In this document: positions 29,693-30,957 of the stretch, one piece after another
Layout: each line of letters starts with the position of its first letter
Numbering within the stretch: the first letter of the stretch is position 1
Translations under genes and position numbers: made by a program
Origin: a virus
Lineage: Duplodnaviria > Heunggongvirae > Uroviricota > Caudoviricetes
Reading direction: 5' to 3' (one strand)
Virus record (IMG/VR): IMGVR_UViG_2850808358_000005
DNA length: 64,000 nucleotides
The notes under the pieces: model-generated
Database searches by the model: none
What the model saw: the letters and a program-made list of their open reading frames with translations, nothing else
Told to the model about the DNA's origin: nothing

Positions 29693-30957
29693 TGAGGTGT
29701 ACTGGCAATAGCGGACACTACCATTTGTTCTTTTTTTAAGCAGCCATCTGATGATATTTTTCCCTGAAGGCTGCCGGGGAGATATTCCCCAGACGAGAGT
29801 GACGACGCTGACGATTGTAGAAAATCTCAATGTATTCCCGTATTACTGAGATGGCTTCATCCCGGTTATTAAAACGATAGTGGCTCAGGCTCTCATTTTT
29901 CAGCGTTCCCCAGAAGCTTTCCATCGGAGCGTTGTCGTAACAGTTACCTTTACGCGACATTGATGTTTTCAGACCAAACTGCTCCTGTATGACCCGGTAA
30001 TCGTATGCGCAGTACTGTGAACCTCGATCAGAGTGGTGGATTAGCCCGGCAGGTGGGCGCTGGCTCCTGAGCGCCATAAACAGGGCTTTACCTGTCAGCT
30101 CTTTTGTCATGCGCTCTCCCATGGCGTAGCCGACAATTTCGCACGTATAAACATCTTTGATGCCAGCGAGGTACAACCATCCCTCCTGTGTGGCAACATA
30201 CGTCAGGTCCGCCACCCAGACCTGATTTGGTGCTGTAGGAGCGAACGTCTGGTTCAGCAGATTTGGCGCAACTGGCAGATTGTGGTTCGGGTTCGTAGTC
30301 GCTCTGAACTTGCGTTTCTGCTTACAGCGTAGCCTTAGCTCCTTACGAAGACGTGCCAGTCGGTCACGACCAACGATGATGCCATTCTCTGCCAGCTCCG
30401 TCTGGAGCCGCCGGGTTCCATATGTTTCGCGAGTGCGGATATGTGCCACCTTAATCTCCAGTTTTAGCCGCTCATCACTTTGTTTTCTGTCTGAGGGTTC
30501 ATGCTGTACCCAGTTGTAATAACCGCTCCTGGATACACCAAATACCTGACACATAGCTTCAATGGGAAATTGTTGTCGCCATTGTTCGATTAACGCGTAT
30601 TTTTCAGCGACTCCTGTGCAAAATACGCTGTTGCTTTTTTTTAATATATCTCGCTCAAGGCGAGCTTCATTTAACGCCTTACGCAGTTGCAGAATTTCAG
30701 ATTCCAGTTCAGCCACCGTGCGGGAACCAGGAGTACCGAGCCCTTTTCTGGCGGCGGTAACCCATTGTCCTAAAGTGCCTTCAGGAAGGGATAATCGGGA
30801 AGCGCCTTCACTGATCGAAAGTTGATTTTCAAGAACCGTTCTGACAGCTTCGGCTTTGAACTCTTTAGAGTAACGTTGGGTTTTTCTGCTCATTATTAGC
30901 TCCTTCTGATGCCATTCTATTTCAGGAAGGAGTGTCCGTTAAACTCAGGCTACCTCA
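29693..30957 (-). mobile_element. IS600-like IS3-family insertion sequence, copy 1 (1265 bp)
   Basis: Ends TGAGGTGTACTGG... and ...GGCTACCTCA; 3-bp target duplication GCT on both sides. Confidence 0.85.
29736..30893 (-). CDS. IS600 transposase, orfA-orfB fused in frame (OrfAB-type)
   Basis: Single 385-aa ORF; the slippery run is 8 nt (30635..30642) versus 7 in the other three copies, giving ILKK-SNSVFC..., the canonical -1 frameshift product. Confidence 0.75.
   Translation of the reverse strand: MSRKTQRYSKEFKAEAVRTVLENQLSISEGASRLSLPEGTLGQWVTAARKGLGTPGSRTVAELESEILQLRKALNEARLERDILKKSNSVFCTGVAEKYALIEQWRQQFPIEAMCQVFGVSRSGYYNWVQHEPSDRKQSDERLKLEIKVAHIRTRETYGTRRLQTELAENGIIVGRDRLARLRKELRLRCKQKRKFRATTNPNHNLPVAPNLLNQTFAPTAPNQVWVADLTYVATQEGWLYLAGIKDVYTCEIVGYAMGERMTKELTGKALFMALRSQRPPAGLIHHSDRGSQYCAYDYRVIQEQFGLKTSMSRKGNCYDNAPMESFWGTLKNESLSHYRFNNRDEAISVIREYIEIFYNRQRRHSRLGNISPAAFREKYHQMAA

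Follow-up and report, generated by a model that had tools for sequence, protein, structure and literature searches.

Expansion of the frameshift run to eight adenines fuses orfA and orfB in a natural, probably transposition-competent allele of IS600

By the textbook account, transposition of insertion sequences (IS) of the IS3 family is held in check by frameshift control, and the effect of losing this brake is known mostly from constructs engineered on plasmids. The subject of the present report is a natural instance, the first of four copies of IS600 (copy 1; positions 29693 to 30957, minus strand) carried by a 64,000-nucleotide stretch of DNA filed as a virus of the Caudoviricetes (IMG/VR record IMGVR_UViG_2850808358_000005), hereafter referred to as the window. 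In the IS3 family, the level of transposition is set by the level of frameshifting, and a cis preference of approximately 200-fold is reported for the transposase of IS911, one that is attributed to cotranslational binding and to which the pause associated with frameshifting contributes (PMC5009743). OrfA and OrfB inhibit transposition according to PMC5771124, which cites Sekine 1997 on this point. The heptamers A_AA.A_AA.A and A_AA.A_AA.G make up 72% of those found in IS1 and IS3 elements, and indels and transcriptional slippage readily occur in AAAAAAA runs (PMC4066793). Two kinds of described system are pertinent to copy 1. In an engineered IS2 fusion, in which A6G was changed to A7G, OrfAB becomes the principal product and frameshifting continues to supply OrfA (PMC3219604), while for IS3-family elements with nine adenines (A9) (IS1447; Baranov et al. 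2005), runs of 7 to 9 A can yield heterogeneous transcripts (PMC6211511, PMC1088944). Besides the IS2 fusion, comparable frame-fused constructs exist for IS911, IS3 and IS150.

Standard IS600, a 1264-bp element of the IS3 group of the IS3 family resident in Shigella and Escherichia coli, shares with copy 1 a DNA identity of 99.6 to 99.8%, TG...CA ends, imperfect inverted repeats of ~27 bp and a target duplication of 3 bp, and encodes OrfA and OrfB of the same sequence. A 2.1-kb query around copy 1 found matches of 99.5% identity in thousands of E. coli records, in which the gene is named "IS3-like element IS600 family transposase" by the Prokaryotic Genome Annotation Pipeline (PGAP), and the assignment to IS600 made in a preliminary description of the window is thereby upheld. 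Copy 1 differs from the standard element in possessing a run of eight adenines (A8) where seven (A7) are usual, in a single open reading frame (ORF) of 385 amino acids (aa), and in a transposase that would be produced without programmed frameshifting. Of the features that define membership of the IS3 family and IS600, DNA identity, terminal repeats, the 3-bp duplication, and the helix-turn-helix (HTH) and DDE domains were all found in copy 1, whereas the pair of overlapping ORFs joined by -1 frameshifting, present in copies 2 and 3, was the single one absent. As copy 1 departs only in its ORF layout, it is regarded as an allele of IS600 and not as a different element. A single ORF encoding an HTH and DDE transposase is likewise typical of the IS481 family, although the fused protein matched the IS481 model only weakly, at 77 bits, far under the cut-off of 224.

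The A8 run is located at positions 30635 to 30642 (minus strand, and thus a T run on the plus strand), and in alignment with the three other window copies, which also delimits the 1265 bp of copy 1, it is the counterpart of their A7 run. A 44-nucleotide (nt) probe representing the A8 version matched the window once (30618 to 30661, minus strand), while its A7 version matched exactly three times (36508 to 36550, plus strand; 39712 to 39754 and 60915 to 60957, both minus strand), the number of matches expected by chance in the window being 0. The minus strand of copy 1 reads ...GAG CGA GAT ATA TTA AAA AAA AGC AAC AGC GTA... across the junction, such that orfA continues into orfB as one ORF of 385 aa (29736 to 30893, minus strand), which was present in the ORF list of the window. 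Its product harbors the HTH_Tnp_1 (83 bits), HTH_21 and rve (DDE; 91 bits) domains of Pfam, scores 414 bits against the NCBIfam model transpos_IS3 (cut-off 160) with the entire model (1 to 369) covered, contains the readable motifs VWVADLTY, HHSDRGSQY and NAPMESFW, and is identical to the database protein WP_134796079.1. In the A7 copies, the zero frame at this position is TTA AAA AAA GCA, which places the heptamer A_AAA_AAA, and a simulated tandem -1 slip in an A7 copy yields ...ERDILKK-SNSVFCTGVAEKY..., the very translation of the A8 copy, an identity which assumes the tandem-slip model. Both the difference in run length and the equivalence of the fused product to the frameshift product, as proposed in the preliminary description, were thus confirmed.

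The alteration is of the same kind as that of the engineered IS2 fusion, a likeness which had also been drawn previously in general terms: one base is added within the slippery run, orfB is brought in frame and the slippery site is kept. A small OrfA-type protein, which has been seen for the IS2 fusion, is predicted for copy 1. The IS2 construct is, in turn, unlike copy 1 in that the latter is natural and chromosomal, depends on its own weak promoter and is present at three loci. With the elements that rely on transcriptional slippage, copy 1 shares a long A run at the orfA/orfB junction; those elements, however, require slippage to fuse their ORFs (at least 9 A, or at least 7 in IS1447), whereas the ORFs of copy 1 are already in frame, and slippage on A8 would take the ribosome or transcript out of it. 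No description of a naturally fused IS600 was found in the literature searched on IS600 frameshifting and on natural fusions in the IS3 family. The fused protein is already databased under the ordinary transposase name, and it is the evidence of its propagation, presented below, that is new.

Copy 1 is a simple, complete IS600 insertion, as removal of the element and one copy of AGC restores an intact site of 697 nt, which was matched at 100% and in one piece by 10 E. coli genomes. Its ends, read directly from the sequence, are 5'-TGAGGTAGCC...ACACCTCA-3', and its imperfect TG...CA terminal inverted repeats, TGAGGTAGCC...GTACACCTCA, are the same in all four window copies; the left repeat (IRL; ~27 bp) lies at 30931 to 30957 and the right repeat (IRR), which ends in ...CA-3', at 29693 to 29719 (both minus strand). 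Comparison of the flanks identified the target-site duplication GCT (AGC in the orientation of the IS) at 29690 to 29692 and again at 30958 to 30960. The interrupted gene encodes a prophage ATPase with an AAA_24 domain, whose 5' part (29289 to 29692, plus strand) was recognized from the ORF list, Pfam and the empty-site match, and whose 3' part (30961 to 31654, plus strand) was recognized from the ORF list and the empty-site match. At the matching empty site in E. coli, a prophage gene is annotated as "AAA family ATPase", with an uninterrupted 365-aa version encoded by E. coli FDAARGOS_944. The IRL junction creates a chimeric ORF of 240 aa, for which no database record was found.

Relative to the consensus of 46 aligned copies, copy 1 departs solely in the extra A, a private synonymous G>T substitution and two positions common to all window copies. 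The private substitution (alignment column 404; GAA GCG>GCT ATG), here termed T404, lies 87 nt downstream of the A8 run and served as a marker of the lineage. An exact look-up of the 385-aa protein returned two assemblies only in the whole collection searched, a collection in which A7 copies are called as separate OrfA and OrfB genes and in which a called 385-aa gene therefore represents a contiguous ORF. One of the two, GCA_002950035.1 (CP026877.1; 5.13 Mb), possesses the 385-aa ORF at three loci: L002, which is copy 1 of the window, L003, situated in the 3' end of mtfA, and L004, which adjoins an IS21 element. The three elements are 100% identical across 1265 bp, and all combine A8 with T404. 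T404 was seen in none of four A7 copies of the same strain (the three in the window and one in CP026876.1, the presumed plasmid of that strain), giving a linkage within the strain of 3/3 versus 0/4 (Fisher p = 0.029), nor was it found among the readable copies on genome contigs (0/38) or metagenome contigs (0/33). The A8 run is consequently judged to be real, and a sequencing error very unlikely, because A8 recurs at three loci together with a linked substitution 87 nt away.

The insertions at L002 and L003 are flanked by separate target duplications, AGC and TCC, respectively, and the reconstructed empty site of L003 was recovered at 100% and as a single piece in E. coli, in the mtfA/tRNA-Asn region. 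The possession by two loci of private target duplications, coupled with matching empty sites in E. coli, indicates that the A8 element has most likely transposed, and at least twice, which would mean that the fused OrfAB works in vivo. A very recent burst of transposition, as might be read from the zero divergence among the three copies, was rejected as weak, since a 1.3-kb element gains substitutions too slowly; this notion is further weakened by the existence of identical A7 pairs at different S. flexneri sites and by the presence of the copy 1 insertion in other isolates.

The A8 allele is rare. All 42 IS600 matches on contigs of species-representative genomes, which derive from S. flexneri SFBU1023, the Shigella-like "E. 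coli" ECMA0423 and one contaminant contig, possess A7 (A8 in 0/42), as do all 37 matches from metagenomes. Among records with a near-full-length match, A8 was found in 3 of 1333 complete E. coli genomes and in 3 of 262 plasmids. The A8 copies outside the source genome occupy at least five haplotype backgrounds, and PGAP annotates A8 copies as plain single coding sequences under the ordinary IS600 name. Recurrent independent mutation to A8 was considered, and its standing as a proven event is weakened by the finding that related genomes have A7 at the same sites: for the singletons in E. coli 2014C-3655 and OY754853, A7 occupies the same site in 8 and 1 related genomes, respectively, and the A8 copy of the S. 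flexneri locus L001 has an A7 counterpart at the same position in SFBU1023, the two sequences differing there by 11 gaps per 4.5 kb. The A8 singletons elsewhere may be in situ mutations or errors, with no spread seen, evidence of propagation being confined to the lineage present at three loci of the source genome.

As to its origin, it is proposed that a slip during replication lengthened the A7 run of an intact IS600 by one A, thereby generating copy 1. In a normal IS600, orfA would be translated in frame 0, and a minority of ribosomes would slip by -1 on A_AAA_AAA, upstream of a hairpin, to yield OrfAB. In the A8 copy, ordinary translation would pass from orfA into orfB, such that the 385-aa OrfAB becomes the main product and displaces the 100-aa OrfA regulator as the default one. 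A hairpin is indeed predicted by minimum free energy folding directly downstream of the slippery run (GCGUAUUUU-16 nt-AAAAUACGC, extended by AAC/GUU; 30592 to 30632, minus strand), with a stability of -11 to -13 kcal/mol when folded in isolation. The distance from the heptamer to its G-C-closed stem is 6 nt for A7 and 7 nt for A8 read in the fused frame, both of which are within the 4- to 10-nt rule of PMC4066793, and a scan of the element against Rfam (E <= 1) gave no match, hence assigning the hairpin to no curated frameshift-element family. On the basis of the predicted fold, the hairpin is likely to be a frameshift stimulator that is kept in the A8 copy.

Given that heptamer and hairpin are retained, some ribosomes would be expected to slip by -1 out of the fused frame of A8, producing a 96-aa OrfA-like protein ending in ...ILKKKQQRILHRSR*. 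Occasional slippage of RNA polymerase may add to this mixture, as A9 transcripts would encode the 96-aa protein and A7 transcripts the normal OrfA. The ratio of OrfAB to OrfA would, in this manner, be inverted in the A8 copy without OrfA being abolished. The preliminary description had considered copy 1 to be a constitutive source of OrfAB; the fused frame bears this out, although OrfAB is not expected to constitute the whole output. Expression of the A8 copy is presumed to be driven by the weak promoter of the element itself, for which the candidate is a sigma-70-like site (TTAACG-17-TAGAAT; 30914 to 30942, minus strand) that overlaps IRL, a match to the consensus only and of a type no commoner than in shuffled sequence. 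The raised supply of transposase would act mainly in cis on the ends of the element that encodes it, as extrapolated from IS3-family elements that have been studied. By analogy with those systems we infer, for copy 1, raised OrfAB levels, cis action and residual small proteins.

Taken as a whole, the explanation that a slip gave rise to A8, that the result is a natural fused OrfAB, and that the allele is both real and competent for transposition is considered probable, though several observations, set out here alongside the alternatives to which they lend weight, count against it. The stability of the 95-nt hairpin region does not significantly exceed that of shuffled sequences (z = -1.2), and the absence of divergence among three 1.3-kb copies affords little time resolution. 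It could be argued that the run is a homopolymer sequencing or consensus error, its true length being A7 and copy 1 an ordinary IS600. The source assembly is a complete genome of long-read type, the A8 singletons in other assemblies (2014C-3655 and OY754853) are hard to tell from errors, the L001 copy lies in the gap-rich comparison described above, and copy 4 of the window has another change in A-run length. Independent short-read assemblies (SRR6049580, SRR1811640 and GCA_003572525.1, with ERR200316 in part) reproduce the copy 1 junction and 2.9 kb of flank at 100%, but their contigs end 27 to 53 nt inside the IS, short of the A run. Such an error is nevertheless regarded as very unlikely, as A8 is shared by three copies at three loci in perfect linkage with a substitution seen in no A7 copy. 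The local context of the run is the same in all copies, and a systematic error would thus strike A7 copies as well, whereas three random errors confined to one haplotype would be highly improbable. Furthermore, no excess of frame-breaking indels was apparent in the window relative to a prophage of E. coli FDAARGOS_944 (L051), with which it shares 17.6 kb at 99.66% identity and from which it differs by only four one-base indels (window positions 5114, 6144, 13157 and 15300), all in G or C runs and three of them intergenic. At position 5114, it is the window that has the intact ORF (184 aa; 4969 to 5523, minus strand) and FDAARGOS_944 that has a gene annotated as frameshifted. With so few indels, none of which breaks a window ORF, the assembly of the window looks sound.

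A more substantial, albeit still minority, possibility is that A8, though genuine, is in effect neutral or even has lower activity than A7, having spread through gene conversion or ordinary low-level transposition. Three A8 copies are known in the lineage, compared with at least 8 copies of an A7 sub-lineage marked by W128R in a related S. boydii chromosome, CP026845.1; as there is no excess of A8 copies over A7 lineages, A8 is not visibly a runaway element, and the hyperactivity anticipated in the preliminary description from engineered fusions is not borne out by copy number. The insertion of copy 1 is common to at least four other isolates, so is not very recent, and L004 (element at L004 positions 2937 to 4201) lacks a target duplication, its flanks being TGG and GTC. 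Different haplotypes occupy one site in two S. flexneri assemblies, which suggests that gene conversion may take place among IS600 copies. The overall rarity of A8 would fit a short-lived or counter-selected allele, and cotranslational binding in cis might suffer from the loss of the pause that accompanies frameshifting (PMC5009743). Against these arguments stand the IS3-family elements which have been tested, in every one of which transposition is set by the level of frameshifting and fused-frame constructs are the active source of transposase, and the private target duplications and clean empty sites at two of the three A8 copies, which are a direct signature of insertion and not of conversion. 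It had also been suggested that copy 1 could supply transposase to the other three window copies, i.e., that it acts in trans as a transposase factory for nearby A7 copies, including the defective copy 4. The terminal sequences are identical in all copies and would be recognizable by the OrfAB of copy 1, and a higher supply of OrfAB would raise absolute activity in trans. We regard this role as quite unlikely, however, in view of the cis preference of IS911, which is attributed to cotranslational binding (PMC5009743). The A7 window copies, moreover, carry private substitutions, and copies 3 and 4 lack target duplications, as befits older, rearranged insertions, while only the A8 element itself has been seen, without any divergence, at more than one locus.

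A wider reading, which we put forward as doubtful, is that the A7/A8 run functions as a slip-strand switch, such that IS600 and other IS3-family elements with A7 are one reversible slip away from a derepressed, self-propagating state. If this were true, occasional A8 founders would seed bursts of IS600 expansion in Shigella lineages, and the three-copy A8/T404 lineage would represent such a burst caught in progress. Returning to the preferred explanation of a slip-derived and transposition-competent fusion, copy 1 would represent a chromosomal element in which the frameshift brake was removed by a natural one-base slip, and in which the resulting allele has persisted and is present at three loci. 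Should the fused allele prove more active, it would offer an easy path, by mutation, to the expansions of IS600 responsible for gene loss in Shigella, as well as a natural system in which to study cis preference and the role of OrfA; if not, it would merely be a rare IS600 polymorphism.

Fused alleles are easily overlooked, as they bear the same annotation name as normal copies, and the joins reported for normal copies read IFKK. The PGAP-joined "programmed frameshift" products of A7 copies (P0002 to P0015; L008, 980 to 2136) contain ...ERDIFKKSNSV, in place of the ILKK of the tandem-slip model. This phenylalanine appears to be an artefact of the join re-reading a T, there being no TTT or TTC codon in the DNA; with IFKK in the PGAP joins and ILKK in the DNA, contiguous fused alleles should therefore be recognizable by ILKK. 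One further protein, P0007 (WP_094096816.1; 6 contigs, from S. flexneri and S. boydii), is an apparent contiguous IS600 fusion in which H takes the place of S at the junction (ILKKHNSV).

The other IS600 copies of the window, which together with copy 1 display a mutual identity of 99.6 to 99.8% over 1264 to 1265 bp (BLAST, MAFFT), are located at 36212 to 37475 (copy 2; plus strand, 1264 bp, A7 at 36527 to 36533), 38787 to 40050 (copy 3; minus strand, 1264 bp, A7 at 39729 to 39735) and 59990 to 61254 (copy 4; minus strand, 1265 bp, A7 at 60932 to 60938). Copy 2 is flanked by the target duplication TTC/TTC, whereas no duplication flanks copy 3 (CAC/CCG) or copy 4 (GTG/CAC). In keeping with the overlapping ORFs previously ascribed to copies 2 to 4, copies 2 and 3 encode orfA (100 aa, frame 0) and an overlapping orfB (272 aa from ATG, -1 frame). 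Their predicted OrfAB products carry the changes L21P and W128R (copy 2) and W128R and L145Q (copy 3), the rare W128R marker also being present in the IS600 of the S. boydii ATCC 35964 plasmid CP026876.1. The ascription fails for copy 4, in which A6 replaces A5 at codons 4 and 5 of orfA (61177 to 61182, minus strand), truncating the product to MSRKNPTLL* (9 codons). Copy 4 is, by its sequence, defective, and would make neither OrfA nor OrfAB from the normal start; its extra A is the second change in A-run length among the four window copies. The flanks without duplication of copy 4 and of L004 suggest that, once inserted, these copies underwent IS-mediated rearrangement or recombined with other copies.

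Copies 2 and 3 are mutually inverted and bracket 1.3 kb (37476 to 38786) in a layout resembling that of a composite transposon, the enclosed segment containing apparent fragments of phage tail-fibre genes, as judged by eye. The window also harbors paralogous prophage segments of 94 to 98% identity (14078 to 18445 versus 51877 to 57212, and 31300 to 33475 versus 61254 to 63428), and copy 4 adjoins a paralogue of the AAA_24 ATPase/integrase region hit by copy 1, at a different position. Directly past the phage integrase gene (32237 to 33313) lies an ipaH-type gene for a type III effector, which possesses NEL E3 ligase and LRR_TTSS domains according to Pfam (34052 to 35767, plus strand), and whose leucine-rich repeats are encoded by a 60-bp tandem repeat at 34394 to 34606. 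The predicted effector gene marks the genome as that of Shigella or enteroinvasive E. coli. The window most likely derives from S. boydii ATCC 35964, to judge from the W128R marker that copies 2 and 3 have in common with the plasmid CP026876.1 and from the order of accessions, in which a plasmid is followed by its chromosome (CP026844 and CP026845; CP026876 and CP026877).

A number of minor observations were made on IS600 copies in other assemblies. L001 (2937 to 4201) and L027 (6413 to 7676) represent one S. flexneri site, with the duplication CCC and the same flanks, but harbor clearly different IS600 haplotypes. Either conversion of one IS copy by another or repeated insertion into the same site would fit, as far as can be read from the two sequences, while the 11 gaps in 4.5 kb of their flanks point to a low-quality assembly on one side. 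L024 and L026, both from S. flexneri-type genomes and flanked by AGC/AGC, carry a cluster of ~40 substitutions (alignment columns 572 to 804), a mosaic which suggests recombination with a diverged relative of IS600. A near-complete IS600 on a 1380-bp contig assigned to Streptomyces sp. UG1 (L023; NZ_JBNGGG010000135.1, coverage 1.3) almost certainly reached that assembly as an enterobacterial contaminant. Finally, "Escherichia coli" ECMA0423 (4.44 Mb) has many IS600 haplotypes and flanking triplets in common with S. flexneri SFBU1023 (L009 to L050; CP182556.1, CP178302.1), and looks like a Shigella filed as E. coli.

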